A DNA stretch of 24,824 nucleotides from a virus. The stretch covers positions 1 to 24,824 of the IMG/VR virus record IMGVR_UViG_3300021400_000064. One strand, given 5' to 3'. The position numbers were made by a program, and so were the translations under genes. The stretch's first letter is position 1. Every line of letters starts with the position of its first letter. The notes below the pieces were generated by a model that did no database searches, was not told the DNA's origin, and worked only from the letters and a program-made list of their open reading frames with translations. Of this stretch, positions 2,565 to 21,500 are shown piece after piece.

Positions 2565-2918
2565 ATGACAAGTAATTACTATCCTATTGTATTAGATGAG
2601 CGTGAAGGCAGTTTCAGTATTACAAATACTGGGACTGCCCCATCCCCTTGTGTAATCACGATAGTCCCAAGAGTAAGTTTTATCACTATGAAAATTGAAG
2701 GGTTAAGTGAAGACCCTATTGTTTTATCATAGATTGCCGCAAATGATGTTGTTGTTATAGACGGTGAATAGCGTGAGTTCCGCGTAAATGGCTCACTCGC
2801 TTGGGATAAATTTGATGGCTGGCAGTTCCCGCACTTGGAGCCTGGCATCAACACAGTAAAAATTACGAACTCTAATATGATGGATATTGAAGTTGCGTAT
2901 AACGCGAGGTATATCTAA
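2565..2918 (+). CDS. Small tail protein resembling the C-terminal (galectin-like) domain of siphophage distal tail proteins (Dit).
   Basis: GAGGAG RBS at 2552-2557 lies 7 nt before the ATG. Peptide: ITNTGTAPSPCVITIV...VVVIDGE[TAG]REFRVNGS...FPHLEPGINTVKITN. There are 2 in-frame TAG (2730, 2769) and the gene ends at TAA 2916. An alternative ATG at 2550 has no RBS. Confidence 0.7.
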
Positions 2919-2919
2919 T

Positions 2920-4208: not shown

Positions 4209-4820
4209 ATGAATGAAGAATGGAAACTTATTACTTGTTTAAAAAAACAGGGGTTCTCAAATCGGCAATATGAAGCATCCAATTTGGGAAGAATTAGAGT
4301 GAAAAATACAGGCTATATAATGAAACCCGCCACGCACAATTCTGGCTATATAATGTTTAGATACTCTTGGTATGATGTGAATGGAAAAAGATAGTAGGCA
4401 TTTGAATTATGGCATCGGGTTATCGCAAAAACTTGGATACCTAATCCAAATCACTTACCGCAAATAGACCATATCAATAGAGATAGACTTGATAATCGTG
4501 TTGAAAACCTGCGTTGGGTAAGTAATAGTGAAAACCAACACAATACTGATAGAACACTAAAAAAGAAAAAACTATTTAACCGTCGCAAGCCAGTATATAA
4601 AATAGATAATAATTTTAATATCGTAGATGTATTTGAAAATGCTATAATATGTGCGGAACAAGAGGGAACAAGCATACGATAGATAAATAGGATGTGTAAT
4701 GGTGATAGGCATCCTAAAAAGGGCGGTATTACTTATACATAGACATCTTTCCTTGAAACAAAAGGAATGAAGTTGATAGAAGATAATGATGGACCGCGCA
4801 TAATAAAAATTGACAACTAA
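4209..4820 (+). CDS. HNH homing-type endonuclease (203 aa).
   Basis: The N-terminal segment EEWK...[10 protein letters not shown]...MKP..NSGY continues through a TAG-TAG pair (4392-4397) into [44 protein letters not shown], the HNH core. Two more TAG follow (4680, 4740). The gene ends at TAA 4818. Confidence 0.85.
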
Positions 4821-4838
4821 AAAATTTTTTGTTATAAT
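4810..4838 (+). promoter_or_regulatory. Consensus sigma70/sigmaA promoter P1.
   Basis: TTGACA (4810-4815), a 17-nt spacer, TATAAT (4833-4838) with an extended TGt. It is near-identical in layout to P2 and overlaps the HNH stop codon. Confidence 0.75.
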
Positions 4839-4844
4839 ATATCT

Positions 4845-4929
4845 GTCAATGATGAAAGTCATAGGCGTTTCTTCCTTATATAAAGTGAGCCTACTGTATC
4901 ACGACCAACCTCGGTAGGCTCATTTTTTT
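4845..4929 (+). ncRNA. Candidate ~85-nt small RNA (P1 to the intrinsic terminator).
   Basis: A perfect promoter is followed about 40 nt later by a stem-loop plus U7. There is no RBS-preceded ORF. The RNA contains ttcttccttat (4869-4879), complementary to the RBS region at 4968-4978. Confidence 0.45.
4886..4929 (+). terminator. Rho-independent terminator.
   Basis: tgagcctac (4886-4894) pairs with gtaggctca (4914-4922), followed by TTTTTTT (4923-4929). Confidence 0.7.
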
Positions 4930-4956
4930 GACAAACAAAAAATATTTTGGTATAAT
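4928..4956 (+). promoter_or_regulatory. Consensus sigma70/sigmaA promoter P2 (early/replication operon).
   Basis: TTGACA (4928-4933), a 17-nt spacer, TATAAT (4951-4956) with an extended TGg. It lies 30 nt upstream of the 4987 start. Confidence 0.8.
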
Positions 4957-4986
4957 ATATTTAGAAAATAAGGAAGAAGGAATGTT

Positions 4987-5205
4987 ATGGAATATCAAGA
5001 TATTATTGCTGAATTAAAACAAGTATTAGCAAAAGCACCTATATATGATGACACGCCAGAAAGTTGGCATTTACATATAATAGAAAGCATTTTGGATGAT
5101 AGTGTATATCAAAGATTATGTGAAGAAAGAGATAACATTATAGATGATGATGCTGAAACTATTGTTGAGTTATTGCCATACATCTATGGTAATATGAATT
5201 ATTGA
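4987..5205 (+). CDS. Small acidic hypothetical protein (72 aa).
   Basis: AAGGAAGAAGGA RBS, then an intact ORF ending in TGA. No TAG codons. Confidence 0.6.
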   Translation: MEYQDIIAELKQVLAKAPIYDDTPESWHLHIIESILDDSVYQRLCEERDNIIDDDAETIVELLPYIYGNMNY

Positions 5206-5210
5206 TAACG

Positions 5211-5226
5211 ATGGCATATATGCCAT
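5211..5226. promoter_or_regulatory. 16-bp perfect palindrome ATGGCATATATGCCAT (possible operator).
   Basis: Exact self-complementary sequence in the intergenic region just after the 4987 gene. Confidence 0.3.
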
Positions 5227-5239
5227 AATAATATATGGG

Positions 5240-5267
5240 GCGTCCATTGTTATGGACGCTTATTTTT
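5240..5267 (+). terminator. Rho-independent terminator.
   Basis: gcgtccat (5240-5247) pairs with atggacgc (5252-5259), followed by ttattttt. Confidence 0.65.
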
Positions 5268-5289
5268 ATTCAAAGGAGAAGTCAAAAGT

Positions 5290-5472
5290 ATGACATACAA
5301 AAAGATTTTTATGAGACCATTGGCTGTTGAACTTCGTAAATTAGGTTATAGAATAGTTCAAGTTGAACCTAATTACCGCAAACCAGAATTAGATGTTTAT
5401 ACATTTGAAGTGTCTGGTAATTTTATGGTCGATTTTGCGCGGCTATCTAAAAATATTCGTCAGCAGAAGTAA
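5290..5472 (+). CDS. Small hypothetical protein (60 aa), DUF5659-like pattern.
   Basis: AAGGAGAAG RBS. Peptide: MRPLAVELRKLGYRIVQVEPN...VYTFEVSGNF. No TAG. The family assignment is from memory only. Confidence 0.55.
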   Translation: MTYKKIFMRPLAVELRKLGYRIVQVEPNYRKPELDVYTFEVSGNFMVDFARLSKNIRQQK

Positions 5473-5492
5473 GCCAGATAGGAGATAGCCAT

Positions 5493-5915
5493 ATGATAAG
5501 ACAGATGCCAGTATTAGCCCACAAGGGTGATAAGTTTGTTGCGGGACAAGCATTTTGGAGTATCCCGCAAGATATTCTAATTTATGCTTTCAAAAATCTT
5601 ACTTATAATGAAACGCAAGTTTTAGTTTATTTAATTGGTAATAAGCCCAAGTGTGAAGAAGAAGATTATAAAGGTTGGCAGATTAGTAATATCGAAGATT
5701 GTGTGAGTGGTAATGATAGAACCATTCGTGCGGCAAGAGCCACTTTGGCGCAAATGGGGTTTATTCGTCAAATACCTAATCCTGATGGTAAAACATATTC
5801 TACTATTGTTGTTGATTTTGATTGGATTAGAACAGTAGTAAGAAATGGTTGGGATAAAGAAACAACAATAAAAAACTTTGGCGGTTCCCCAGAACCGCGA
5901 ATTGGTAGCAAATGA
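5493..5915 (+). CDS. Winged-helix replication initiator-like protein (140 aa).
   Basis: AGGAGA RBS. Peptide: NETQVLVYLIGN...ISNIEDCVSGNDRTIRAARATLAQMGFI (wHTH-like). The 3' end and downstream flank carry the iterons. No TAG. Confidence 0.6.
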   Translation: MIRQMPVLAHKGDKFVAGQAFWSIPQDILIYAFKNLTYNETQVLVYLIGNKPKCEEEDYKGWQISNIEDCVSGNDRTIRAARATLAQMGFIRQIPNPDGKTYSTIVVDFDWIRTVVRNGWDKETTIKNFGGSPEPRIGSK

Positions 5916-6000
5916 CGGTTGTGTAGAACCGTGATTTGCTAGGAAAATACGGTTGTGTAGAACCGTGATTTGCTAGGAAAATGAGGTTGTGGAGAACCGC
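5882..6000. repeat. Iteron array (candidate origin of replication) followed by an AT-rich tract (6001-6035).
   Basis: There is a 34-bp periodicity with units starting at 5882, 5916, 5950 and 5984. The two central units are nearly identical over their 34 bp (they differ only in the last base) and read cggttgtgtagaaccgtgatttgctaggaaaat. Each unit has a CGGTT...AACCG inverted core. The first unit is diverged and lies inside the rep 3' end; the last is partial. Confidence 0.75.
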
Positions 6001-6144: not shown

Positions 6145-6336
6145 ATGGAGAACAAATTATTTTATTGTTATTCTAAAAACTTATGTTTATTCCTTAAATT
6201 AAATGGGATAAATTATGAAACAAAAGCAAGGCATCCTAATGGCACATATTATTATACATACATCAAAAATGATAAGTTGTTGAAGGGCTTATCATAGTGG
6301 AATAAATATAAAGAAACATTCGCGCAAATGAGGTGA
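6145..6336 (+). CDS. Small hypothetical protein (63 aa), apparent paralog of the 5290 gene.
   Basis: AGGTGAGG RBS. Peptide: MENKLFYCYSKNLCLFLKLNGINYETKARHPNGTYYYTYIKND...LS[TAG]WNKYKETFAQMR. One TAG (6295). Ends at TGA. Confidence 0.55.
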
Positions 6337-6341
6337 TTATA

Positions 6342-6728
6342 GTGGCTATAAATGAAAAACAAAAGATGATGGTAGAACGCTATATTGCTAATGGGTATAA
6401 TTTGCGTGAGGCTTATGAGGCTACATATGGAGAAAAAAAGAACCCCGCAATTTCATATCCCTATCAAATGATAAAGAAACCTGCGGTATAGGAATATTTA
6501 CAGAAGCGGCGTAAAGAGATATATGATAGTCTCCAAATTGATGCCGAGCGCATTGCTACTGAATTAGCAGATGTAGCATTTGCCCCAAAGGGTGATGAGT
6601 TCTACACAGCGCAAGCAAAAATCCAGGCATTAAATATATTAAGTAAGAACTTGGGATTACAGACACAAAAGGTAGAGACTAACCAGACTATTGAAGTGTC
6701 TATTGAAGATGAAACTACAAATCCGTAA
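6342..6728 (+). CDS. terS: Terminase small subunit.
   Basis: GTG start after AGGTGA. Peptide: KQKMMVERYIANGYNLREAYEATYG...KKPAV[TAG]EYLQKRRKEI. One TAG. Ends at TAA 6726 and overlaps terL by 20 nt. Confidence 0.75.
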
Positions 6729-7950
6729 GAATATTTTTAATAGTGTATATTATCCTCATCTATTGGATTACAACAAAAGATATGAAGTGTATTATGGTGG
6801 AGCAGGTTCAGGTAAAAGTGTGTTTGTCGCGCAAAAGTTAGTGGTTAAAGCATTGCGCGAAAAGCGCAAGATACTGGTGCTCCGCAAGGTAAATAGAACA
6901 ACAAAAGCATCTACATTTCAACTCTTGTTGGATACACTTACAAAGTTTCATATAATTAATCTGTGCGACATAAATCGCACAGACTTTTCTATATCTTTAC
7001 CTAATGGTTCATAGTTCTTATGTGCGGGATTAGATGATACTGAAAAGATTAAGTCTATTGTTGGACTGACTGATGCTTGGCTTGAAGAAGCAACAGAATT
7101 TAGTGCTGATGATTTTAGTTAGGTTGATTTGCGTGTGCGCGACCCTAACGCGCAAGGACAGTAGATAATACTATCATTTAACCCTGTATCAAAAGCGAAT
7201 TGGTGCTATTTATGGTTCTTTGCGCCAAATGAAGACCTCGCAGAGTTTCGCGCAGAAGCAGAAATAATTTAGACGAACTATTTAGATAATAAGTTTTTGC
7301 CGCAGAAATATATCGATGCTCTATTGCGTATGAAGAACACTAATCCTGTGTATTATACCATTTATGCTCTTGGTTAGTTTGGTTCTCTTGATAAATTAGT
7401 GTATAACAATTGGCAGGTTATGGATTTCGATAAAGACCGCATCAAAGGGTAGTTGCTGTGTGGTTGCGACTTTGGTTATACAAATGACCCGACCGCATTT
7501 GTGGCGTCTTACCTTGTGCCGCAGGAGAACCGCATATATGTATTTTAGGAGTGGGGCGGCACAGGTTATCTTAATAATTAGATTGCTTCTGCTATTGAGC
7601 GGATGGGGTTTGCGAAATCGGTTATTATATGTGATAGCGCCGAACAAAAAAGTATTGAAGAGTTGCGGCAAGCGGGCATTCGGCAAGCAAAGCCAAGTGT
7701 GAAGGGTAAGGGTTCCGTCCTTCAAGGAATACAAAAGTTATAGTAGTATGAGTTGATTATTCATCCCAACTGTGAGTGTATAAAAGAAGAGTTAGAGAAC
7801 TATGCTTGGGTGAAAGATAAGCAAACGAATGAGTATATAAACGAGCCTATTGATAAATGGAACCATTATTTGGATGCTTTGCGCTATTCGTTATAGTGTA
7901 TGGATGCCCGTGTGTAGTTATAGACTATTGATAAAAAATTACTATTTTGA
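6709..7950 (+). CDS. terL: Terminase large subunit (413 aa).
   Basis: Walker A YGGAGSGKS; DAWLEEA (Walker B-like); nuclease motifs CDFGYTNDPTA, CDSAEQKSIEEL and NHYLDALRY. All lie in frame 1 across 13 TAG codons (7012, 7120, 7162, 7270, 7375, 7450, 7546, 7579, 7741, 7744, 7894, 7915, 7921). The first TAA/TGA in frame is TGA 7948. Confidence 0.92.
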
Positions 7951-7966
7951 TAGGAGGCTGGTGTCA

Positions 7967-9355
7967 TTGATAACTTTATCTCGTGATACAGAATTGACGC
8001 CCGAACTTATAAAAAAGATTGTGGATACTCATAAGACAAGTGAGTTGCCGCGATTAGAAAAATTAAAGAGATATTATGAAACCAAGAATGACATACTCAA
8101 CCGACAGATGGCAGACAGCACTAAACCAAACAATAAGATTGCGAATGCTTATGCCAGTTTAATAACGAGCACGCTTGTTGGTTATTTTGTTGGTGAGCCT
8201 ATTACATATACCGCAGATGATAAACAAATGATGAATGAACTTCAACTTTTGTTTGAGTATAATGATGAGGCTGATGAGAATGCGGAATTGGCAAAGAACG
8301 CAAGTATTTATGGCGTTGCGTATGAATTATTATATATGGAGCAACAGGATGAAGGTATGGGCCGCCCGATGTTGCGGTTTCACACCTTGGATACGAGAGA
8401 ATGTGTGCCTATTTATGATGATACTATCGAACATAATCTAATTGCCTTCATTCGTTATTATACAACGAAGAATGTGTTGAATGATACTGATTTGCTCGTG
8501 GTAGAGTTAATTACAGATGCGGATACGAAGAGGTATGAAGCAACTGTCGCAGGTGGATTACATTTAGTTGATGAAGTGCCGCATTATTTTGGTATGGTTC
8601 CTGTTGCTATTTACAAGAATAACGAAGAGTTAATTGGTGATTTTGAGCCAGTTATTAGTTTAATAGATGCTTATGACACGATGGAAAGCGATACGGTAAA
8701 TGATTTTGATTATTTTGTAGATGCTTATTTAGCACTCTATGGATTTACCGCAGAAGCAGAAGACATTGTGAAGATGAAAGAAAACCGTGTTCTGTTGATG
8801 GATGAGGGCACAAGTGCGGAATGGCTCATCAAGAATACTGATGATACTAATGTCGAGAATATGAAGATTAGGTTAGATAAAGATATTCATAAGTTCTCGC
8901 ACTGTCCTGATATGAGTGATGAAAACTTTGCGGGGAATAGCAGTGGTGTTGCTATACAGTATAAGTTATTAGGCACTGAAAATCTTATTTCTATTAAAGA
9001 GCGCAAGTTTAAGCGTGGATTACAATAGCGTTTAGAACTTATCGCGCAGATGTAGGGATTGATGGGCGCTAATTTTGATTGGCGTGCTATTGATATAATG
9101 TTTAGACGGAACATACCTGCTAATTTGAGTGAGATTGCTACTGTTGTTAGCCAGTTGAAGGGTATAGTGTCTAATGAGACATTGTTAGCACAGATACCTT
9201 TTGTTGATGATGCGACTGCGGAGCAGGAGAAGTTGAATGATGAGAAGGAACAGGATAAAATGAATAATCCGTTCTTCCAGTTGGATTATGAGACTAATGC
9301 TATGTAGCGAAATAAACAATCACAAACGCAGACAGACGGTCAAGAGGTTGAGTAA
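7967..9355 (+). CDS. Portal protein (SPP1 gp6-like).
   Basis: AGGAGG at 7952-7957; TTG 7967 is the best-spaced start, with GTG 7961 as an alternative. Peptide: ELPRLEKLKRYYETKNDILNR...KPNNKIANAYASLI. Continues through TAG 9026, 9053 and 9305 to TAA 9353. Confidence 0.88.
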
Positions 9356-10269
9356 TGAACCCTGACAAGAAAAAACAATTAGCAAGGTATTACGCCACAC
9401 AAGAAAGAGTGCTTGAAGCGTTAGCATTAGCATATGAATAGACTGATGAGTTATATAAAATACTAAAAGAAATCACTGATGAAATGTGGGAAGATTTGCG
9501 GCCCGCCATTCAAGAGTTGATAGAAAAGTATTTAGATAACCCTCACGCGCAAATTGATTTGGATAAGTATCCCGCGATTAGGATGGCGATTAGAGAGATT
9601 GAGATGCGCCATCATCAACAGTTGTTGGAATACTATTGGATGGGCTATAATGTAATTACAGAGAGTTTGGTAAGCACTTATCAAAAGGCGAGTTTAGATG
9701 CGTATTAGATTATGTCTGTTGTTCCTACTTGGCAGAATTAGGAGATAAATCCTGTCATAAGACAATAGGCAGAAGTGCGAATTACAGACACTTACATTAC
9801 AAGCAATAAGTTGCCTATTCCGTGGTGTAGTGATGGTAAAGTATATTCGTAGCGTTTATACGGACACATTGCTAATTTTTAGTCTAAATTGAACTATGTA
9901 TTGAGTGAAGGTATCGCCAAAGGGCGGGGAATGGATTGGATGATGTAGGCTTGGCGCAAATTAGTTGGCGCCACTGCTTACGATGCCGCGCGCCTGTTGA
10001 AGACAGAGACTATGGCTTTTTATAATGAGGGCTTGAAAGATAGTTATATTGAAATGGGCGTTGAGTATGTTGAGATTGTGGGCGATGCCGAATGCGGTGG
10101 AATATGTTTAGATTATGTTGATGGCGACCCGATTAGGATAGTTGATGCCGAAATAAATGTAGAGTTGCCGCCTTATCATCCTAATTGTGCTTGTTCTTTT
10201 GTTGCGTGGGAAGAGACTGAAATCGTAGAAAATCCAGAAAATACATCAGGGAGCCAAGATGAAGAATAA
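9355..10269 (+). CDS. Head morphogenesis protein (Mu F / SPP1 gp7 family).
   Basis: TAATG stop-start overlap. Track ORFs 9484-9708 and 9997-10269 share frame 1 and are joined by TAG codons (9439, 9706, 9739, 9766, 9850, 9880, 9946 in total). Peptide: WCSDGKVYS[TAG]RLYGH...ELPPYHPNCACSF. Confidence 0.85.
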
Positions 10270-10294
10270 TCAGGGGTAAATGTAGAGTTTATAA

Positions 10295-10373
10295 GGCTTC
10301 TCGGTTTTTTAAGTTGATACCCTGTCTCTTAATCAGGGTGTCCGGGGTTCGAGCCCCCCCCGAAGGCGCACCA
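10295..10373 (+). tRNA. tRNA-like element (degenerate or non-canonical). The loop reads CUU and is not a CUA suppressor.
   Basis: Canonical T arm: GGGG-TTCGAGC-CCCC (10344-10358). The anticodon-like stem CCCTG/CAGGG (10320-10324 / 10334-10338) encloses TCTCTTAAT. A 5-nt variable region is present. The acceptor pairs at only 5 of 7 positions (GGCTTCT vs CGAAGGC), and the D-arm region is a T-rich stretch with no convincing stem. Confidence 0.35.
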
Positions 10374-10380
10374 TACGGAA

Positions 10381-10406
10381 AAGCCTCGCAATAGCGAGGC
10401 TTTTTT
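10381..10406. terminator. Rho-independent terminator (partly bidirectional).
   Basis: aagcctcgc pairs with gcgaggctt, followed by TTTTTT on the + strand. An A-run precedes the stem, giving a weaker U4 terminator on the - strand. Confidence 0.75.
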
Positions 10407-10423
10407 CTATACCGTAGCAAAAC

Positions 10424-10452
10424 TTGACACCGTGATTTTTTTAGTCTATAAT
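10424..10452 (+). promoter_or_regulatory. Consensus sigma70/sigmaA promoter P3.
   Basis: TTGACA (10424-10429), a 17-nt spacer, TATAAT (10447-10452). It fires antisense through the minus-strand gene toward scaffold and capsid. Confidence 0.75.
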
Positions 10453-10695
10453 TCAAATCAAGGGCTCCGCATAGTTCTTCACTTTATCTGTTAGTGTATA
10501 ACCGAGATATTTTTTAGCATAATCAAATTTCATAGTGGTGAGGGAATGCGGCACCTCTTTACCATCTTTCTTGCGGGTGTGCTTTTTGTTGCGCTCCTTT
10601 TGTAGCCAAAGCAAAGCATCTTTATCTTTGCGCGCTACCGCGTCTGCGATGAGGTCATCGAGAGACATTGCCATTATTTCCTTCGTAGTAGCCAT
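10453..10695 (-). CDS. Hypothetical 80-aa protein, the only minus-strand gene (possible regulator).
   Basis: AGGAGGTG RBS (complement of 10701-10708), ATG start, intact ORF ending in TGA. No TAG. Basic central segment: KERNKKHTRKKDGK. Confidence 0.65.
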   Translation of the reverse strand: MATTKEIMAMSLDDLIADAVARKDKDALLWLQKERNKKHTRKKDGKEVPHSLTTMKFDYAKKYLGYTLTDKVKNYAEPLI

Positions 10696-10715
10696 ATAAC
10701 CACCTCCTGTTGGTG

Positions 10716-10744
10716 ATTATAATACACGATGACCGCATTGGCAA
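10716..10744 (-). promoter_or_regulatory. Strong minus-strand promoter for the 80-aa gene.
   Basis: On the - strand: TTGCCA (10744-10739), a 17-nt spacer, TATAAT (10721-10716). Confidence 0.65.
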
Positions 10745-10842
10745 GTATAAGTTGGGCGAAATTAGCACAAACGCTTAATTATAAATACAAATAACAATAG
10801 AAGAACGAACTCATAGTAAGGGCGTTCGAAAAGGAGAAAATT

Positions 10843-11418
10843 ATGGAAGATACTAATGATAAGGGTATGGAAAACACGCAAACTCCTAATGAGGGTGCGG
10901 AAACCCCAAAGACTTATACAGAAGAAGAAGTTCGTGCGTTATTACAACAAGAGGGAGACCGTAGGGTATCCCAAGCGTTGAATAAACAGCGTAAAGAGTT
11001 GGAGAAGAAGCAAGCCGAAGCAGAGAAACTTCGTGATATGGATGAGAACCAGCGCCGCGAATATGAGTATAATAAAAAGGTTGCGGAGTTGGAGCAGAAA
11101 GAGCGTGAGTTCGCTATCGCGCAGAATAAGTTAGAAGCATCGAAGGTGCTCGCTAATAGAGGTTTGCCAGTCCAATTTGTAGATTATATAGTTGCTGATG
11201 ATGCTGATACTATGATGGCGAATATCGACACATTTGATAAAGCATTTAAGAGTGCGGTTGCTGATGCTGTTGCTATTCGTATAGCGCAGCCTACGCCGAA
11301 ATCTGGTTCAGCAACACAAACAGGAATAACAAAAGAGCAGTTTAGAAAACTAAACCTGGCTCAACAAGCAGAAATATATAAAACTAATCCCACATTATAT
11401 AGGGAATTGATTAGTTAA
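10843..11418 (+). CDS. Scaffolding protein (DUF4355-like).
   Basis: AAGGAGA RBS. Charged coiled-coil peptide TEEEVRALLQQEGDRRVSQALNKQRKELEKKQAEAEKLR. It sits immediately upstream of the capsid gene. All 15 Gln codons are CAA/CAG; none is TAG. Confidence 0.8.
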   Translation: MEDTNDKGMENTQTPNEGAETPKTYTEEEVRALLQQEGDRRVSQALNKQRKELEKKQAEAEKLRDMDENQRREYEYNKKVAELEQKEREFAIAQNKLEASKVLANRGLPVQFVDYIVADDADTMMANIDTFDKAFKSAVADAVAIRIAQPTPKSGSATQTGITKEQFRKLNLAQQAEIYKTNPTLYRELIS

Positions 11419-11434
11419 TAAGGAGTGTATATAT

Positions 11435-12370
11435 ATGGCAGCATATCCAGATAGCCACATTATTTATGAAAATGAAGTATTAGAAAATAAAATCACCGAT
11501 TTACTTATTACTGCGGTTGATTTATCCAATTATATGACTGTTGATAACAGTCTTACACAGAACGCAGGTATGACGAAGGTTATTAACCGTTATACCGCTT
11601 CTGGTAATGTTGAAGACCTTGAAATGGGCGAGGGCAACACCAAGGGTATTGAAGTTTCGTTTGACCCAGTTAGTTATGTTGTTGGCACCACACAGGGACG
11701 CTTTGCTTATTATGACGAGCAGGCTATGACTGACCCAATGGTTGTCGATGTTGGACTTGATGGTTTAGCAAAGACTATGGTGAATGATTTCACCACAAAG
11801 GCTATTGCGGAGTATGAGAATGCCGACCTTGGTATTGAACTTAACAGCGGTTGGAGTTTTGATGCTGTTGTTGATGCTATCGCAAAGATGAACCTTGAAG
11901 ATGAAAGTGGTTTATTCTTACTTATTTCTCCTGCGGACCAGGCCGCTTTCCGTAAGGCGCTCAAAGATGACCTCAAATATGTTGAGGGCTTTGTCCGCAC
12001 TGGTTATATCGGTAGTGTTTGCGGTGTTCCTGTAATCGTATCCAAGGCTGTTGATGCTGGCGTTGGTTTCCTTGCGACTAAGGACGCGATTACCTTATTC
12101 ATCAAGAAGGCTACTGAAATCGAGCAGGAGCGCGATGCTAATGTTCGTAAGAATACAGTTTATGCTCGTAAGGTTGCTGTTGTCGCGCTTACTGACGCTA
12201 CGAAGTTAGTAAAGATTGATGGGCGTGGATATTCGGTTGCGGAGACCTCGATTTCTACTAATCCTGCGGCAGAAGGTTTATTCGAAAAGACAGAAAATGG
12301 TGCTTATGTTCCTTCCAAGGATACTACTGCTATTAGTGGCAAGACTTATTACACACAGGATAGGGACTAA
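11435..12370 (+). CDS. Major capsid protein (HK97-fold type).
   Basis: AAGGAG RBS and a 311-aa intact ORF after the scaffold gene, followed by a terminator. No TAG. The call rests on position and composition; the family is not verified. Confidence 0.8.
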   Translation: MAAYPDSHIIYENEVLENKITDLLITAVDLSNYMTVDNSLTQNAGMTKVINRYTASGNVEDLEMGEGNTKGIEVSFDPVSYVVGTTQGRFAYYDEQAMTDPMVVDVGLDGLAKTMVNDFTTKAIAEYENADLGIELNSGWSFDAVVDAIAKMNLEDESGLFLLISPADQAAFRKALKDDLKYVEGFVRTGYIGSVCGVPVIVSKAVDAGVGFLATKDAITLFIKKATEIEQERDANVRKNTVYARKVAVVALTDATKLVKIDGRGYSVAETSISTNPAAEGLFEKTENGAYVPSKDTTAISGKTYYTQDRD

Positions 12371-12380
12371 TTTAAATAAT

Positions 12381-12417
12381 GGCTCACGGTTTTAACCGTG
12401 AGCCACACCTTTTTTTT
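12381..12417 (+). terminator. Rho-independent terminator after the capsid gene.
   Basis: ggctcacggt pairs with accgtgagcc, followed by a T8 tract 5 nt downstream. Confidence 0.7.
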
Positions 12418-12436
12418 ACTATGAGGAGGACAAAAA

Positions 12437-12733
12437 ATGCTTGATAGATTAAAATTACTCCTTCATAAAGAAGATGATGATACTGTTGATGAATTATTAT
12501 TGTTGCTAATCACACTTTGTAAAGATGAAGCATACATTTATTGTAATTTAGATGAGTATGATGAAGCGTTAGATTATATCGTAATACAGATGGTAATTGA
12601 ACGCTATAACCGCATTGGTAGTGAAGGAACAACCGCGCAAAGTGCGTCTGGCGCATCCGCAACATATGATAGTTTTTATAGTAAAAAAGTAGAGCGTATG
12701 CTAAATAAGCACAGGAAGGTGAAGTGCGTATGA
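12437..12733 (+). CDS. Head-tail connector protein (gp6-like).
   Basis: GAGGAGG RBS. Peptide: LLLLITLCKDEAYIYCNLDEYDEALDYIVIQMVIERYNRIGSEG. No TAG. Confidence 0.65.
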   Translation: MLDRLKLLLHKEDDDTVDELLLLLITLCKDEAYIYCNLDEYDEALDYIVIQMVIERYNRIGSEGTTAQSASGASATYDSFYSKKVERMLNKHRKVKCV

Positions 12734-13035
12734 TAAAGAGAGATACACTTACCCGTATTCTACTTCAACCTATTGATGATGAAGAGGGCGGCAAGTCATT
12801 TGATGAACCGCAAGTAATGGAAACTATTCCAGCACATATTTCTTCTGGCGCATCTTCTAATGAGATTTCTATGTATGGTGTAAAGACACAGTATGTCTTA
12901 CATACTACTACTGATGTAAAATTAGATGACCGCGCAATTGCGAGGTATGTATGGAGTAGCAAGGTATTCAAAGTTATGAGACAAATCAAATCAGGCAACG
13001 AATGGTTTGCCACTCTATTAGAAGTGAATGAGTGA
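12730..13035 (+). CDS. Head closure / head-tail adaptor protein.
   Basis: ATGA overlap with the previous gene; the size and position are typical. No TAG. Confidence 0.5.
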   Translation: MIKRDTLTRILLQPIDDEEGGKSFDEPQVMETIPAHISSGASSNEISMYGVKTQYVLHTTTDVKLDDRAIARYVWSSKVFKVMRQIKSGNEWFATLLEVNE

Positions 13036-13046
13036 GGAGTGGTGAT

Positions 13047-13376
13047 ATGCTTACATTTGATAACGATACAAAGAAAATCCGTATGGTAGTAAAAGATACG
13101 GGCAGTATTACCGTGAATGTAGAAAATTATACTCTTAATGAGGGTGATGAAGTAGTATTCACAGTAAATACGGGGCGTGAGATTGAAACGCCACTCATTC
13201 AAAAGAAAGTATCAGTATTTGCTGATGGTAAAGCCGTTATTCAGTTATCTGTTGAAGATACGAATGTCAAACCAGGCACTTATCTTTATGATATTCAAGT
13301 TAATGGCGCAGATGGCAGAGTTGATACAATTGTTGGACCCGCAAAGTTCGTATTTGAAGGGGGCATAACATTTTGA
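13047..13376 (+). CDS. Hypothetical structural protein (beta-rich, Ig-like?).
   Basis: GAGGAG RBS 7 nt upstream of ATG 13047. No TAG. Confidence 0.5.
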
Positions 13377-15760
13377 GTGAAGAGAATGTAAATATTAACA
13401 TTGGTGCTACTATTGAGACTGACCCTGAAATAGTAGTTGAGTTTGCCAACCCTACATATCAAGGACCCGCTGGACCTGCGGGACCTAAGGGTGATAAAGG
13501 CGACCCATTCACTTACGAAGACTTTACCGCAGAACAACTTGCGGCACTCGTTGGACCAAAGGGTGATAAGGGCGATGATGGCGAACCTGGCCCCAAGGGC
13601 GACCCATTTACATATGAAGACTTTACACAAGAACAGTTAGCCGCATTAGTTGGACCACGCGGACCGCAAGGCGAACAGGGAATATAGGGCATACAAGGAC
13701 CGAAAGGTGATACTGGCGACCGAGGCATTTAGGGATTACAAGGACCCCAAGGTGAGTAGGGTGTATAGGGACCACAAGGTATCCAAGGCGAGACTGGACC
13801 GCAAGGGCCCAAAGGCGATAAAGGAGACGCATTCAGTATTGCCGCGATTTATAGTAGCCTTGCTGAAATGAACCTTGACTTCTCCAATAGTAATGTTAAG
13901 TTTGGAGATTTTGTTATCATTACTTCTACTGTTGATGACCCAGACAATGCCAAACTTTATGTGAAGACATCAAGCGGTTTCAACTTTATTACTGATATGT
14001 CAGGTGCCGCAGGCATCCAAGGCCCAAAGGGTGATACTGGTGAGACAGGTGCTATTGGACCATAGGGACCGCAAGGTGTATAGGGTATTCAAGGACCGCA
14101 GGGTGAAAAAGGGGATACAGGACCTGCTGGAACATATACCGCAGGTGAAGGTATTGACATTACAAATGGTGTAATTAGTTCCACTGTTGATGGTGCTATT
14201 TATTCCGCTGGCGATGGTATTTCTATTGATGCCAATAATGTTATAAGCACGACAAAAGATTATTATATTATTAAATATCAAAATAATATAGCAAATTATA
14301 GTGCGGAAGATTTACAAAGATTGTATGAACTTGGTGGTTTCCAAGAGACCGCAAAACCAGTTGTAATAGAATATATGTATAAACACTATCATTATGCTGG
14401 TAGAACAGGCACTTAGATGGTGTTTGTAAATTGGAAGGCTGGCGGCACTGCTTCGCGCCACACAGTAGAACCAAATGCTATTATTTATTATATGGATAGT
14501 TTGAAAGAGACAATAACGAATTAGTTATTAGTCGATACTAATATAGGTATATATTCTTCAAATATATTCAGTAATAACGCTAATAACAACCCATCAGGAT
14601 AGAGTAATTCTAATTTATAGACGGAATTACAATATATTAAAAACAATTACACAAAGACCGCTGATTTAGCGGCTGTTGCTACATCGGGCAGTTATAATGA
14701 TTTAACTGATAAACCGACCATTTCAGGCGGCACCACTTATACTGCGGGCACTGGTATTAACATCACTAATGATGAAATTAGTGTTGATGCTACTGCTTTA
14801 TCATATAATGATTTACAGAATAAACCCACTATCCCAACAGTGCCGACCAATGTAAGTTCTTTTACTAATGATGCTGGGTATCTAACTACGCATTAGGATA
14901 TTAGTGGTAAGGCGAATAGCGCGGATTTAGCAACTGTTGCTACTTCTGGTTCATATAATGATTTATTAGACAAGCCAGAAATTAGCGAGGGTGCTACCTA
15001 CTCTGCTGGTTATGACATTTATATCGATGAAAATAATGTCATTAATGTTGATAATTTTATTGTTGATGTTAATTTAATGCTTGGCTCACAATCTGGTAGT
15101 TGGGAACTATTCTTTAATGGAAGTCCTTGGATAAATAGAAGTGTCCCAAATGACCCAGATAATGACGCGTTTGTTTATTTATATGATTGCTATTATGCCA
15201 GCGGTAAGAGTTGGGTTAATACACATTGCCATATCCATCCCAATGGATAGAACGCCGAATGGGGAAAAATTGTTTATGTCGATGGCGATGAAACGAGCAC
15301 TACAATCACTTTTGGCATATTCTTTGCGCCGAATTACTATTTAGAGTTAGGATATCGGCAACTTCCCACTGATGAAACACGCAGATACTTATATAGCGCT
15401 TCTGGCACCATAATTACGCCATCTTTGGCTTGGGATAGAACTAATAATATAGTTAAGGTTCGTGTGGAAAATGGACTAAATAAATTATATATAGACCCCA
15501 CCGCTATTTCCTATAATGATTTAACTAATAAACCAACTATACCTGACTTGACAGGATACGCAACTCAAACATATGTTGATAATGCTATTGGTTAGGTTCC
15601 TACTTATAGTGCTGGCACAGGTATTAGCATTAGTGCGAGTGGTGAGATTAGTTGCTCTGTTGTTGATACTAATACTACATATACTGCTGGTAATGGCATT
15701 AGTATTAATAATGGAGTTATTTCTTTAAATTTAACTAATGCGAATGGGGTGAGTTATTAA
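13373..15760 (+). CDS. Collagen-like fibre protein (795 aa).
   Basis: Frame 2 is open from TTG 13373 (which overlaps TGA 13374) to TAA 15758, with 13 TAG. Gly-X-Y runs are unbroken across TAG. There are two [18 protein letters not shown] units and repeated SYNDL(T/Q/L)(D/N)KP(T/E)I motifs. The start codon is uncertain. Confidence 0.85.
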
Positions 15761-16377
15761 TGGCTAATGTAATTATTGATGATACTCATTTAAGTGATAT
15801 TGCTGATGCTATTCGCGGCAAGAATGGGAGTTTAAATACTTATACACCAGCATAGATGGCGGCGGCTATTAGTGCTATTGAAACTGGCGGTAGTAAAAAA
15901 GTGAAATGGTTGCGTAGCGATACTGATGCTTCCTACACTTATGCCACGTCTTTCACAGTTCCCGATGATATGAAAAGCACTGAATAGATACTTTTTTTGT
16001 TATATTATTGGAGAACTACAGCAAAGTTAGCGTGTCCTTTTTATATTAGAGATTTTGCGTAGTATCAAATAAATAGTAGGACATAGAGATACTGGATGCC
16101 GATAGGCCAGTTTCCTAATTTAGGTGCCACTCCAACTACGAATGGTGGCAACTGGATTGCCAAGGAAAGTAATACGTCATTTTAGGGCGATGTTTTACGC
16201 TGCGATTAGTTTTTATTATATAGCACTTTTACTTTTAGATACAGTTGGAGAACATTGAAATCAGGAACAATCATTACGCCTACTCATTATACTAAAAAAG
16301 CATCTGCTCTTACTGATAGCGCATCAGGCACTTCTGTCAGTGGCACAAATCGTATATTTGTTTTATATGAAGTATAA
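15760..16377 (+). CDS. Hypothetical structural protein (205 aa).
   Basis: TAATG overlap. N-terminal peptide: VIIDDTHLSDIADAIRGKNGSLNTYTPA[TAG]MAAAISAIE. Six TAG (15853, 15985, 16060, 16084, 16183, 16207). Ends at TAA 16375. The six-frame track shows no ORF here only because of the TAG codons. Confidence 0.6.
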
Positions 16378-16388
16378 AGGTGAAACTT

Positions 16389-16976
16389 ATGGGACTTCGA
16401 TGTGAATTAGATATAGAAGATTGGGAGTTTCCTATGGAAACTCCTATTTTACATAAACCGATTGATTATAGTGAGGGCTTATAGGTATTTTGCGACACAT
16501 TTATGGAAGTATCAACAGCATATTGTCCCGTAGACACAGGATATTTAAGGAGCACACTGACTGCTGATAATGATGGCATTTCTTGGGCTGAATGCTATAC
16601 AGATTGTGAATACGCATAGTATCAAGAATATGGGACTTGGTGTATGCCAGCATAGCCTTATTTTGAAAGAGCGGTTGAGGCAGCGTTTGAAGAAGCCACA
16701 CAGTATTGGCAAATTGCCATTGATGAAGCGATGGAAGAAGAGCAGGATGAATTACAAGCAATGGCGGATGCTGCGGAGGCAGAGGGAGATTTTGAAGAAA
16801 CAGTTAGTTTAACATATGAAGGAGTTGCTGCGTTATTTTTTTTATGGGTGTTTTCAACGATTATGTGGGGGATACACGAAATATTGAAATCCGCGTTTGG
16901 TGATGAAAAAAAACATAATGAGATGGAAAACATAATGAAAATAGGTTTATAGTTTTATGATATAGAGATTACATAA
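16389..16976 (+). CDS. HK97 gp10-family neck/tail-attachment protein with an acidic linker and a C-terminal hydrophobic helix.
   Basis: AAGGTGA RBS. Peptide: CPVDTGYLRSTL...EYA[TAG]YQEYGTWCMPA[TAG]PYFERAV, then EEEQDELQAMADAAEAEGD and GVAALFFLWVFSTIMWGIHEIL. Four TAG. Ends at TAA 16974. Confidence 0.65.
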
Positions 16977-16987
16977 GGAGGGGTTGG

Positions 16988-17179
16988 ATGAATAAATTAT
17001 ATACTGCTCCCAAAGGTAAAGTATATGATTGGGCTGAACCGCATACAGCCCATATTGTTGAGCCTGACGGCACTATAACAGAAGTAGTAGAGCATTTATA
17101 TGCTAAATACTTGTCTATTGCTCGTGCCGACAGTATTGACAACTATATTTTGGTTGATGACCCGAGGGAGAATAAGTAA
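16988..17179 (+). CDS. Hypothetical protein (63 aa).
   Basis: AAGGAGGGG RBS and an intact ORF. No TAG. Confidence 0.55.
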   Translation: MNKLYTAPKGKVYDWAEPHTAHIVEPDGTITEVVEHLYAKYLSIARADSIDNYILVDDPRENK

Positions 17180-17571
17180 TGTTAGCAACAACCAAGAAAA
17201 AGTTTTGTAAGTTCTTGCGCGCATTAGAATATAATGTTGATGATAATGGTAATTATCGTGAGGAGTTTCCTTGGCTGATGTTGAGTATGGGTGGCGCAAG
17301 GGTATTAAAATCTAACGATTTAAATATGACTGAAATCCAACTCAAACTTGATATATTCAGCACTTATACGGGTGAAAAAGAGATACTTACTATTGTCGAT
17401 AACATTAATAGTCATATTCGCGCATTTATGGATGAGAATGCGGAAATCCAATATGTGTTTATGCGCTCTTTGCGTATAATTGATGATAAAGAGACAGGGC
17501 CTGTTCGCAAGCACGGGATAGCGCAGTTCTCTTTTATTGTGGCGCAGGAGGATATAAGCGATGGCGAATAA
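17179..17571 (+). CDS. Putative tail completion/terminator protein (130 aa).
   Basis: TAATG overlap, and a position directly upstream of the major tail protein. No TAG. The function is inferred from position only. Confidence 0.45.
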   Translation: MLATTKKKFCKFLRALEYNVDDNGNYREEFPWLMLSMGGARVLKSNDLNMTEIQLKLDIFSTYTGEKEILTIVDNINSHIRAFMDENAEIQYVFMRSLRIIDDKETGPVRKHGIAQFSFIVAQEDISDGE

Positions 17572-17950
17572 TGTTTAGAAGGGCATAAATATAGTCCTAA
17601 AAATAGGTGAGACTTTATTGGGCGGGCAGTTAGGTGCTACGCTCATTTAGTCTGCTTCTTCTATTGATATTACAAATAAAATTACAGGCGAATGGCAAGA
17701 GGTTTTAGAGGGTATAAAATCTTGGTAGATTACAGGTAATGGTTTATATGTAAAGAATAGTATCACATATAAAATGCTTCAAGATGCCTTTAATACTAAT
17801 ACTGCTATTGATGTAGAAGTAATGCTTGACGAGCATCGTTATGTCGGTAAGGCAATTTTAGTTGAGTTCCCACTTACTGCGGTTTATAACGGAACATATC
17901 GTTATAATTTCCGCTTATTGGGCGATGGAGCACTGACGATAAGTGAATGA
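17561..17950 (+). CDS. Major tail (tube) protein, TP901-1-like (129 aa).
   Basis: AGGAGG lies 9 nt upstream. Peptide: IVLKIGETLLGGQLGATLI[TAG]SASSIDITNKITGEWQEVLEGIKSW[TAG]ITGNGLYV...YRYNFRLLGDGALT. Three TAG. Ends at TGA 17948. Confidence 0.75.
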
Positions 17951-18443
17951 GCGCATTGTTGAGATTGATGGTAAAAATTATCGGTTCAAAATTGGACTTC
18001 GTAGTATAATTTATTTACAGTCTCTTTCAAAGATTGATGAAGGTGATATGTTTGTCGCTGGCATAATTACCTTTAATGATATTCCTATAAAAACGGCAAA
18101 GTTGATGTATCAGCGGCTTTGTCGTCAAAAAGATTATCAGCCATTATTTGAATAGGTTATCTCAACTCCTTTCATTGATGTGCGGGATTTATATCGAAAA
18201 GCCGTTGGCGAACTTGGTATAAGTCCCGCCATTTTCTACCAAATGTCGCCAGATGAAGTGGAATTAGCCTATCAAGGGTATTTGCGTAGATAGGAATTAT
18301 CCGCAAACCTTACTAAATTAGCAGTATTATAGGCTTTACACGATGACCGAAATGAGATTACTTTGGCGGCAACGCCTGAATATTCAGTGGGGACAGAACC
18401 TGACCGAGAAAAAACATTTTCTGTATTGGGGATAGAAGAATGA
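17943..18443 (+). CDS. Tail assembly chaperone-like protein, possibly a very short tape-measure-like protein (166 aa).
   Basis: It occupies the position after the tube gene. Peptide: LGISPAIFYQMSPDEVELAYQGYLRR[TAG]EL. Three TAG (18153, 18291, 18330). Ends at TGA 18441. Confidence 0.5.
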
Positions 18444-18598
18444 CAGATTATGAAACAGTAAAAAAGAATGTAGCAGATTAGATGAGTTAGGTGTCTTATC
18501 AGTTTGAGCGCACATCAACTTTACAAGAGGATAATACTGCTACTCTATTGAATGACATTGGTTTAGCGATAAACCGTGAAGGAGGTATGAGTATCTAA
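18440..18598 (+). CDS. Small protein (52 aa), or the -1 frame extension of the preceding gene.
   Basis: ATGA overlap upstream and TAATG overlap downstream. Two TAG (18479, 18488). Confidence 0.4.
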
Positions 18599-21500
18599 TG
18601 CTAATCAACGGTATAAATATAAATACCCTTGGTGTCAAATTATATGATAGAGTTATTAACTCTAACACTGTTGATACTACACAAGAATGGTTAGATGGTG
18701 ATATTCAGCCCACTTTTGTTAGACAGTAGGACCGTTTCAAAACTATGACACTTGCGTTCCTTGTATTAAATACTGATGAGGAAAACGCGTTTTTGCGTAT
18801 AAGCCGTTTAACGCAAGCATTACGCAAAGCGACATTATAGTTTGATGATATTAGTCTTACTTTTGATACAACATTAGTGGGCGCGGCAGAACCTGAACGC
18901 TTAAAGAACGGTAATTTTATCGTTAGATATACTCTAAACAGTGATTACGCGTAGGGTAATCGTGAAATATATACGACAGATGCCAAAGCAACAAGCGCAT
19001 TTAGGCTCACCGTTCTTTACTACAAAAACACAACTCAATTAGTCGGGCAGGATGTATATACTATTCGTGCTGGGGCTTTTGATGTTGGAACACCAACATT
19101 AAGTTCTATTGGTATTGATGTGGATAAATACCGCGAACAACACTATAATGCTGGTGCCGCAACTAATATGGGTTCGATGGAACTTACATATGAAAATTTA
19201 CAGTCTCTTGGGACTTTAATTATTAACTATGCGCCTGTGCGCTACAATCTCACACTTGCTTACTATATGAATAGTGGAGAGGGTTATAATGAGACTTTAC
19301 AAGAGACGATAACCTTTACACATCCACAACTTCAAAATATTAAGACCATCGGGCAACTATTTGATGTAAATACTTACCGTCCTGATGGTTATCGTGCGAC
19401 TATTGATTATAGCGGACCTCTTACTGTTGAAGGACTACTTGCGGCATCTCCTATTGCGGTTATGTATGATGTAGTTCAAAACGAACAGAGTAAGAATATA
19501 ACAGTAGTTTATCGTAATGAAAATGACGCTGGCGGTTATGATATTATAGATAGTGAATTATTGAATGTGCGTGAAACCGCTATTACTGATGGTAAAACTT
19601 TACGCGACATTTTCAACCTTAACGCATATAAGCCTAACAGCCTATACTATTTTGATGGGACCATTGAGGGCTATAATGCTGATGACCTTATTACTTATGC
19701 GGATTTGAATACAACTTATTACATCAACTACCGCAGACAAGAGCACACTATCTATGTTGAGTATTATGCTGGAACCTATCCAGATTGGTATCGCCTCACT
19801 AATATTCCTCTTACAGTAAAATATAAAGATGCGTATGAAGAAGAGTTTAATATTACAGACATTGGTTTGGATTTAGACCGCTATCATACAGCAGAGTATC
19901 AAAGAGGACAACTTTATAATGGCGATAACTTTGAGACATTTGATGATGTAATTACTACTGGCGTTCTTCAAGTATATTATGTGCCTATTGATTTCACTAT
20001 TAAGGTTCGTTATAAGAAAGATGATGCGAATGAATACACCGAAAAAGATGTAGTAATCAACGCATTACAGTTCTTTGGCGACCCAGTATTAAGTGATATT
20101 ATAGACATAAATACTGACCGTCCAGAAGGATATCAGTTAGATTTAGAAGAGAGTTATAACGGTGAAATTACACTTTCCGCACTCACAACGAGTTCTCCAA
20201 TATATATTGTATATGAAGAAATACAAGAAGTGCGGCAAAAGAATATCATAGTTAGGTATAAGCAACAGTTATCAAGCGCCTATTCTACCATAAATACTTC
20301 CATTTTGGTTATTAATGAAGCAGACTGCGTTGGTGGCGTGCGGTTGCGCGACCTTATCAACTTAAATCTCTATCGTCCAGATTACTATGATGGTGGTATC
20401 TTGAATGGCGCGAGTGAGAGTGCTTTATTGACTTTTGATGATTTACTCGCAAATTATGAAGTATTATACCGTGCTTCTACATACAACACTCCTGTATATT
20501 ACTATACGGATGATGTTGATGAGCGTAATTGGATTGGTAGTTCTGTAATTAATTATACAGTCCTTGATTTTACAACAGAAACAACACTGTATGATTTAGG
20601 GTTAGACCCAAATCAATATAAACCTTCATACGCCGCAGATGGTGTAGTTCAATATAATGGCGCTATTTCATTTAGTGCTTTACGCGGCTTATCAAGCATC
20701 AACATTGTGTATGATAGTATTGAAGAGCCAGAAGACCCAAGTGGTATTGATTATCCGCACAGGTTCTTATTCTTACAACATAATGATTTAGGCGCATATG
20801 AAAATCAGCATCCAGAATGGACTATGAACCACGCTTATATTAATACAGGCGTAAGCGTCCAGGATATGTCTAAATTGACAGTTATTATGGAGGCAAAGCG
20901 TGTTGATGAATATGTGGCGCCACATACAGTAAATGCGGGCTATGCTTACTTATTCGGTAGTTCATCTGCTCTTGGTTAGTATTATATGCGGTTTAACAAC
21001 CAAACGATGTATGGCACTAATCTAACGGGTGTAAATACTTATGAAGCAAAAGCAGGTAATACCGTAAATGCGTTAGTGCTGACAGAGGAGAACGCTATTG
21101 GTTGGAGTGAAAATTCTGGTATTTACTCTACATAGAATTATAATGGCTATTCAACAGCCACATTTACATATAGCAACCGTATGCCGACAGAGCACGCGCA
21201 AATGCCATATCCGCTTTATCTGTTCGCTAATAATAACAGCGGTTCCTATGCTGATGGACTTGCGGGATGGGGCATTTACAGTTGTAAGATTTTGTATGAT
21301 GGATAGTTATTGCGTGATTTTATCCCCGTTCAGTATTACGACAAGATTGGCGATAAGATTGCGCCAAGCAACTGTTTATATGATAAGATTAGCCAGAACT
21401 TCTTTGAAGATGCTACTGGCAAGAACAGTTTTAATATCATTGATGATGAGCGCTACACTGATACAAACCCAGAACATCAAATAGGTTCGTTCTATGTAAA

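Follow-up and report, generated by a model that had tools for sequence, protein, structure and literature searches.

The present study examined a 24,824-nt stretch of viral DNA (IMG/VR record IMGVR_UViG_3300021400_000064, positions 1 to 24,824; hereafter, the window), in which TAG is read as glutamine (Gln), and focused on a block of five plus-strand genes at 10843-13376 that contain no in-frame TAG. The block begins with a scaffold gene (10843-11418, 191 aa; PHROG 172, E=2.6e-39; Pfam DUF4355, E=3e-25) and the gene for the major capsid protein (MCP; 11435-12370, 311 aa; PHROG 544, E=1.4e-21), both of which have strong ribosome-binding sites. They are followed by genes for a head-tail adaptor (12437-12733; PHROG 132, Pfam Phage_connect_1), a probable head-closure protein (12730-13035; a weak match to PHROG 501, E=0.005), and a small Ig-like or unknown protein (13047-13376; PHROG 1084, which has no assigned function). 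A GC-rich hairpin with a T-run (12380-12412, plus strand; 11 pairs, 7 of them GC) lies directly 3' of the MCP stop. The position of this hairpin is kept in the related lineages B-F described below, with different sequences and folding energies of -24 to -35 kcal/mol; the element resembles an intrinsic terminator or an RNA-stabilizing structure and may close a scaffold-MCP cassette. The block is flanked by two TAG-rich plus-strand genes, namely, that of a MuF-like minor head protein upstream (9355-10269; TAG at 7 of 17 Gln-type codons) and that of a collagen-repeat fiber downstream (13373-15760; 13 of 37).

The first 107 nt of the window are the same as the last 107 nt (1-107 and 24718-24824), indicating a complete circular assembly of 24,717 bp. 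The contigs of relatives are 24.7-25.8 kb with different break points, and that of the closest relative has a terminal overlap of 127 nt. Coverage by long open reading frames (ORFs) increased from 0.40 to 0.83 once TAG was read through, and the fragmented ORFs of the standard code then became one tiled set of plus-strand genes. Fusion through TAG also gave full-length Pfam/PHROG matches for the TerL, portal, MuF, fiber, and tail genes. TAG was in frame in these conserved genes and aligned with Gln, as in code 15 (TAG=Gln). In codon alignments, Gln was the most frequent partner of TAG columns (e.g., 23 of 47 in TerL), and the TAGs in the MCP and adaptor of one relative (L001) and in the MCP of another (L217) aligned with CAA or CAG in the window. 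Standard-code homologs had Gln at 22% of TerL TAG sites versus 12% of CAA/CAG sites. We concluded that the window is a complete circular genome from a recoded (TAG=Gln), siphovirus-type, probably temperate lineage of small gut phages.

In the TerL gene (6709-7950, plus strand; Pfam Terminase_3, E=4e-60), which is the TAG-rich comparator, 13 of the 27 Gln-type codons are TAG, 10 are CAA, and four are CAG. The scaffold gene has 15 Gln codons (9 CAA and 6 CAG) and no TAG, and all six Gln codons of the MCP gene are CAG. TAG is also absent from the adaptor (0/2), closure (0/4), and Ig-like (0/3) genes, i.e., 0/9 together. The five genes thus have TAG at 0 of 30 Gln-type codons versus 79 of 284 elsewhere (Fisher p=2e-4). 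At most 37 Gln codons follow one another without a TAG (10255-13676), a length that was reached in 0.08% of permutations (p=8e-4); therefore, TAG usage along the genome is not uniform. An earlier note on this DNA, made from the sequence alone, had described these genes as a TAG-free island that ends where TAG returns in the fiber gene at 13685, and our recount agreed with that position and with all of its codon counts. However, its probability of roughly 1e-5 for the scaffold was inflated because the yardstick, TerL, is the most TAG-rich large gene. At the genome-wide TAG rate of 0.27-0.28, P was 7e-3 for the scaffold and 0.14 for the MCP, each taken alone, and 0.05 for the three small genes combined. 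The flanks had also been called saturated, which holds for MuF and the fiber, but not for the portal (3/20) or the giant tail gene (16/101, including a run of 25 Gln codons without TAG). TAG use was also heterogeneous among the genes outside the block (chi2 p=3e-4).

The depletion is confined to the reading frame. Off-frame TAG in the scaffold and MCP genes was at a normal level (11.3/kb versus 13.9/kb), as was CTA, which rules out the avoidance of a DNA-level motif and points to translation.

Relatives were collected from IMG/VR and from scans of metagenome contigs using the MCP and scaffold as queries. The window represents lineage A, and lineages B-H are relatives with in-frame TAG inside their TerL and portal homologs; their MCPs are 83% down to 48% identical to that of the window. 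More distant relatives use the standard code, as do all prophage copies in reference genomes (Clostridia, Oscillospiraceae, and Acutalibacteraceae MAGs), none of which is recoded and whose MCP identity is 49% or less. In lineages A-F and H, TAG accounted for 0/15, 0/16, 0/16, 0/16, 0/15, 0/16, and 0/18 Gln-type codons of the scaffold gene (pooled, 0/112) and for 0/6, 1/5, 0/6, 0/5, 0/6, 0/9, and 1/3 of those of the MCP gene (pooled, 2/40). Against the TAG background of each lineage's own genome (0.18-0.28), P was 1e-3 to 2e-2 in lineages A-F and 0.07 in lineage H. The lineages are only partly independent of each other, so that combined p-values give an upper bound on significance. The two TAGs in MCP genes were found in lineages B (ISPADqAAF) and H (YYDEqEM) at different conserved Gln sites.

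Codon alignments gave the same picture by column. TAG occurred in 1 of 36 Gln-type columns of the scaffold and 1 of 18 of the MCP. The columns with TAG in at least one lineage were 20 of 43 in TerL, 16 of 44 in MuF, and 12 of 24 in a neck protein, and the corresponding figures were 6/16 for the tail terminator and 3/6 for the adaptor. The pooled difference (2/54 for the scaffold and MCP versus 100/310 elsewhere) was significant (p=2e-6). The TAG fraction of TerL was high in all lineages (0.19-0.50).

The block as a contiguous unit is not conserved. TAG was present in the adaptor gene of lineages B (2/2; L001) and E (1/3; L005), in the closure gene of lineages C and D (1/3 and 1/6 in relatives), and in the Ig-like gene of lineage D (1/4; L004). 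Comparison with relatives, which the earlier note had proposed as a check, therefore retained its scaffold and capsid genes, depleted in seven to eight lineages, and removed the three small genes. Chance suffices for these because they have only two to four Gln codons each, and we concluded that they are TAG-free in the window by chance.

We consider it very improbable that such a sampling accident extends to the whole block, that the TAG-free state was simply inherited, or that a standard-code phage was the recent source of the scaffold-MCP module. Chance accounts for the small genes, as described above, and a potential source for import exists in standard-code relatives with 49-61% identical MCPs. 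However, scaffold and MCP depletion recurs across lineages whose synonymous sites are mutually saturated. Import is also contradicted by the lack of any discontinuity in composition or divergence: the scaffold and MCP resemble their counterparts in relatives about as closely as the flanking TerL and portal do, GC content at third codon positions in the scaffold and MCP genes (0.36-0.37) equals that of the neighboring head genes, and these two genes have diverged from the closest relative at synonymous sites as much as other genes have (0.23-0.28). We therefore rejected horizontal import. The depletion is not an inherited ancestral state either because, in other genes, the window and its closest relative differ by 37 switches between TAG and CAA/CAG at 252 shared Gln sites, and because the scaffolds of lineages E and F, only 43-45% identical, still have zero TAG. 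TAG is gained and lost rapidly in TerL, MuF, the fiber, and the neck genes, and phylogenetic inertia does not explain the depletion of the scaffold and MCP.

The block lies downstream of a perfect sigma-70-type promoter, P3 (TTGACA-17-TATAAT, 12/12; 10424-10452, plus strand), with 390 nt between this promoter and the scaffold gene. Either the scaffold and MCP genes or all five genes may accordingly have been kept free of TAG so that they can be translated from P3 under the standard code, before or independently of the code switch. Other genes expected to act without suppression are also TAG-free, including the integrase of relatives (TAG at 0/7-0/9), a small minus-strand gene near P3, and small early ORFs. 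One of the early genes, g5493, lacks TAG in the window and in lineages D and H; the copy in the closest relative has one TAG. The main text of Borges et al. (bioRxiv 10.1101/2021.08.26.457843) describes the avoidance of TAG in the integrases of Topaz and Garnet phages. Nevertheless, we regard this regulatory partition as quite unlikely. The block is not conserved, with both Gln-type codons of the adaptor in L001 being TAG and the closure and Ig-like genes containing TAG in lineages C and D. The TAGs in the MCPs of lineages B and H are at essential positions, and the MCP cannot be made there without suppression. In lineage B (the closest relative) and lineage C, the P3 equivalent precedes a 324-aa tyrosine integrase that has no internal TAG and ends on TAG; P3 is thus an integrase promoter, with a convergent gene opposite it. 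In lineages E, F, and G, only 41-108 nt separate the TAG-rich MuF gene from the scaffold gene, no consensus promoter is present in this gap, and the scaffold is TAG-free. The portal, which is assumed to be needed to nucleate a functional procapsid, has three TAGs, and a regulatory partition leaves the avoidance of CAA by the MCP unexplained.

We therefore rejected P3 as the cause of the island. The promoter noted earlier is present with all 12 consensus positions, but the depletion is independent of it, and no separate transcription start was found that divides the block from its recoded neighbors. The suggestion that these genes are kept translatable under the standard code was likewise unsupported, since the adaptor, closure, and Ig-like genes and the MCP carry TAG in relatives and the portal carries it in the window.

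No other gene in the genome deviates as strongly in codon usage as the MCP gene (chi2=143, p=5e-13; AAG 17/20). In every lineage and in one standard-code relative, the preference of the MCP for AAG (0.73-0.94 versus 0.30-0.54 elsewhere) and CAG (0.78-1.0 versus 0.25-0.38 elsewhere) was marked, and NNC codons were also favored, less strongly, in all lineages. The MCP thus avoids both minor Gln codons, CAA and TAG, a pattern typical of highly expressed genes. The scaffold shares this pattern in part: it showed a weak codon shift in the same direction in most lineages and is purged of TAG only, with nine CAA codons kept.

TAG/(TAG+CAG) was 0.75-0.86 in TerL, MuF, the fiber, the gene at 15760 (g15760), and the tail tube, close to the leucine yardstick TTG/(TTG+CTG) of 0.86. 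Values were lower in the portal and giant protein (0.23-0.37), and the scaffold and MCP had a value of 0. The constraint on TAG is therefore graded and does not act as a switch. We also considered a cost of accuracy or ambiguity at single sites, in which TAG would be confined to unimportant Gln positions. This idea found no support: TAG sites were as conserved as CAA/CAG sites in standard-code homologs (p=0.58), which indicates that the effect is at the gene level, not at the site level.

The depletion is probably explained by translational selection that acts on whole genes and removes a costly suppressed codon where expression is highest. TAG in the late operon would be a usable but costly synonymous Gln codon. 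Each TAG would be read by suppression in a presumed standard-code host, in competition with release factor 1, and a limited supply of suppressor would form part of the cost. Selection against TAG would then scale with the amount of protein needed. The MCP and scaffold of HK97-type heads are high-copy proteins. With hundreds of copies per head, the scaffold and MCP would be purged of TAG, the low-copy TerL, MuF, fiber, and neck proteins would drift to the mutational C-to-T equilibrium (TAG/(TAG+CAG) of ~0.75-0.86), and the portal and giant tail protein (2,890 aa) would be intermediate. Both the cost, attributed to imperfect suppression, and the role of expression level as the driver are inferred.

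Several points weigh against this explanation. The signal was not significant in the more distant lineage G (P=0.12-0.30). Apart from TAG, the scaffold lacks a marked general codon bias (chi2 p=0.68). The tail tube does not fit a simple copy-number ranking: three of its six Gln-type codons in the window are TAG, and it showed no codon bias there. TAG was low in the tubes of relatives (1/4, 0/5, 0/5, 0/3, and 0/8). The cost of suppression is an assumption, and the rank of the scaffold and MCP as the highest-expressed late genes is presumed from the copy numbers of HK97-type heads. The earlier suggestion that the virion proteins of highest abundance do not rely on suppression is accordingly supported for the scaffold and MCP, on the basis of conservation across lineages and, for the MCP, of codon bias, but not for the tail tube.

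A similar relationship has been reported in cellular genomes. In Blastocrithidia (PMC12153298) and in an oligohymenophorean ciliate (PMC10553269), genes with high expression are depleted of reassigned stop codons. In both cases, the reassigned codons are used non-randomly, and the authors interpreted their under-use as a translational burden. However, those organisms have dedicated tRNAs and altered release factors, whereas the present genome is that of a phage that presumably relies on the translation machinery of a standard-code host and in which no suppressor tRNA was detected; its expression levels are inferred.

No suppressor tRNA, release factor, or tRNA synthetase was detectable in the genome. 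ARAGORN called zero tRNAs in the complete genome and in 18 loci of relatives, and Rfam found no tRNA in the genome at the gathering threshold or at E<=0.5. We therefore rejected a hidden suppressor tRNA or other structured RNA on the basis of ARAGORN and of Rfam at its gathering and E-value thresholds. A phage suppressor tRNA(CUA) has been found in 40-52% of code-15 phage genomes, and many have no detectable one. Candidates for the decoder of TAG are a host suppressor, a co-resident phage, and a non-canonical RNA.

TAG may instead be adaptive, with the TAG load of each gene setting the ratios of virion proteins on long polycistronic late mRNAs through incomplete read-through. The number of TAGs would then be a stoichiometry rheostat, in which zero gives full yield and a dozen or more in TerL, the fiber, and the giant protein give a trace yield. 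If so, the production of particles would be gated by a suppressor supplied from outside, either by a co-resident phage or by the host. The gradation of the TAG fraction across genes, the consistently high fraction in TerL, and the significant heterogeneity outside the block are in line with this attenuator, and read-through may be incomplete, as no dedicated suppressor tRNA was found. However, we consider the attenuator, and with it the rheostat, to be unlikely. The TAG-rich genes are at a T-versus-C ratio like that of leucine, for which relaxed selection alone suffices, and TAG positions turn over rapidly and are mostly lineage-specific. With 13-16 TAGs per gene, full-length product would fall to only 3-5% even at 80% read-through per site. 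In addition, neither the tube nor the terminator protein fits a copy-number ranking in the window genome.

Recoded codons are usually considered to mark late structural and lysis genes, which remain silent until the code switch. The present case shows a second layer within the late module, in which the genes of the presumed two most-made proteins stay TAG-free over long evolutionary distances and their neighbors vary freely. The depletion implies that TAG decoding has a real cost in these phages, and the relationship between the TAG fraction and expression may serve as a simple proxy for this cost. For annotation, a TAG-free capsid gene does not signify a standard-code phage. The explanation is conventional; it refines the current model of phage recoding and does not overturn it.

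The window genome resembles Topaz-type phages, a likeness that is based on their published description. The Topaz clade has genomes of 22 +/- 3 kb that are TAG-recoded, with the structural genes as one recoded unit, and the main text of Borges et al. describes Topaz and Garnet phages as 22-24 kb and temperate, with integrases that avoid TAG and Oscillospiraceae or Prevotella hosts (bioRxiv 10.1101/2021.08.26.457843). The 24,717-bp circle has this size range and recoded structural unit. Shared features are a genome of ~22-24 kb, a gene content devoted almost entirely to structure and packaging, with ORFs that the standard code breaks into fragments, TAG=Gln, and circular free genomes. Relatives occur in Clostridia/Oscillospiraceae genomes, and the closest relatives of the window have a TAG-free integrase. 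The window itself lacks the integrase, and the avoidance described here is in late structural genes, the scaffold and MCP, inside the recoded module. The main text of Borges et al., supplementary tables aside, reports avoidance for the integrase only and not for the scaffold or MCP. A megablast search against the INPHARED phages gave zero matches.

TAG-free and recoded genes also coexist in the genomes of two-code crAss-like and Lak phages (Yutin et al., PMC7886860; Peters et al., PMC9523058), and, as in these, the early and lysogeny genes of the present genome are TAG-free. However, the recoded class in those phages is the late structural genes, and crAss-like MCPs carry in-frame stops, which Yutin et al. 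used as evidence of recoding (PMC7886860). Here, the TAG-free scaffold and MCP genes lie inside the late module, and their depletion follows an expression-type codon bias, not a block of transcription timing. Two reports provide incidental hints that MCPs are often TAG-poor, a point that neither discusses. In one, 57% of code-15 phages had an MCP that was recovered with table 11; in the other, TAG is listed for TerL and the tape measure protein of the phAss-1 group, but not for its MCP. With the supplementary tables of Borges et al. set aside, we found no explicit report in the literature of expression-linked TAG depletion in phage capsid genes.

The region between MuF and the scaffold appears to be the remnant of an integrase locus. 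The window has no integrase at the position where the closest relative and lineage C carry one, and comparison of the loci suggests that it has lost the gene and kept the promoter, an att-like tRNA fragment, and a small convergent gene. This gene (10453-10695, minus strand; 80 aa, basic) is conserved and TAG-free, has an AGGAGG site and its own 11/12 promoter at 10744-10716 (minus strand), and is convergent with P3. Its product had no Pfam, PHROG, or PDB sequence match. Homologs with 72-79% identity adjoin the integrase in lineages B and C, and the gene is probably part of a lysogeny cassette. The two consensus promoters (10424-10452, plus strand, and 10744-10716, minus strand) face each other ~290 nt apart and bracket the gene; this arrangement could be a convergent-transcription switch of the lysogeny cassette.

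The earlier note had included a TAG-free minus-strand gene in the island. This description fits 10453-10695, but not the ORF at 12765-13202 on the minus strand, which lies antisense to the closure and Ig-like genes. The latter ORF encodes 145 aa without Gln-type codons and is longer than most synonymous reshuffles would give (p=0.014). However, the closest relative has a stop codon inside this ORF, which is most likely not a gene.

Upstream of P3, 10320-10375 (plus strand) reads as the 3' half of a tRNA-like sequence, with an anticodon-arm-like hairpin, the T-arm GGTTCGAGCC, and the end GCGCACCA. The T-stem of the copy in the window is degenerate and poly-C, and the copy in the closest relative folds better. 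Neither ARAGORN nor Rfam called it a tRNA. It has no 5' half and no CUA anticodon, and we therefore read it as an att core. BLAST homology with the closest relative stops exactly at 10375, where that relative carries a 1.2-kb integrase insert, and the piece looks like an attP-type core left after integrase loss. It is followed by the terminator hairpin AAAGCCTCGC-AATA-GCGAGGCTTTTTT (10378-10407, plus strand), which ends the TerS-TerL-portal-MuF unit and may also serve the convergent small gene. Sub-threshold Rfam matches at 10378-10407 reflected only a terminator-type hairpin with a T-run, without family-specific structure.

The region 4810-5980 is probably an early/replication region. It has two copies of a perfect sigma-70 promoter (4810-4842 and 4928-4960), each in a 33-nt repeat, and the TAG-free small ORFs 4987-5205, 5290-5472, and g5493 (5493-5915), the products of which had no Pfam, PHROG, or PDB sequence match. 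Three tandem 34-nt iterons are present at 5879-5980, each with a CGGTT-N6-AACCG palindrome. An HNH endonuclease gene with four in-frame TAGs (4209-4820, plus strand; NUMOD4 and HNH_3) lies upstream of the early region and terminase genes, and 4485-5205, between the HNH gene and g5493, has no homology to the closest relative.

The remaining plus-strand genes were assigned by Pfam/PHROG matches. They encode TerS (6333-6728), an SPP1-type portal (~7958-9355), neck/tail completion proteins (15760-17571), the tail tube (17561-17950), a chaperone-like protein (17943-18443), a Dit C-terminal domain (2550-2918), and Tal (2887-3948). The very large tail protein, on the plus strand from 18598 across the junction, was obtained by joining two terminal ORFs into one gene (18598-24717, then 1-2553; 2,890 aa, 16 TAGs, ~35% of the genome). 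It sits between the chaperone-like gene and Dit/Tal, the expected slot of the tape measure; the protein is beta-rich and repetitive, and a Pfam search gave no match. There are ~80 in-frame TAGs genome-wide. No replication, lysis, or integrase genes were recognizable.

The Tal gene terminates with TAG-TAA (3943-3948). In a closely related genome (relB; IMGVR_UViG_3300021254_000014, rebuilt from L001 and L161), the integrase ORF meets a TAG at ~2612-2614, where homologous integrases end. TAG may still be a stop, or a leaky stop with a backup, in some genes of a TAG=Gln genome.

The gene at 15760-16377 is the most TAG-rich in the genome (6 of 8 Gln-type codons). Only 2 of its 191 synonymous sites differ between the window and the closest relative, versus ~25% in every other gene, and the surrounding block (14613-16667) is 93.5% identical to that relative versus ~85% elsewhere. 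This pattern suggests a recent recombinational exchange.

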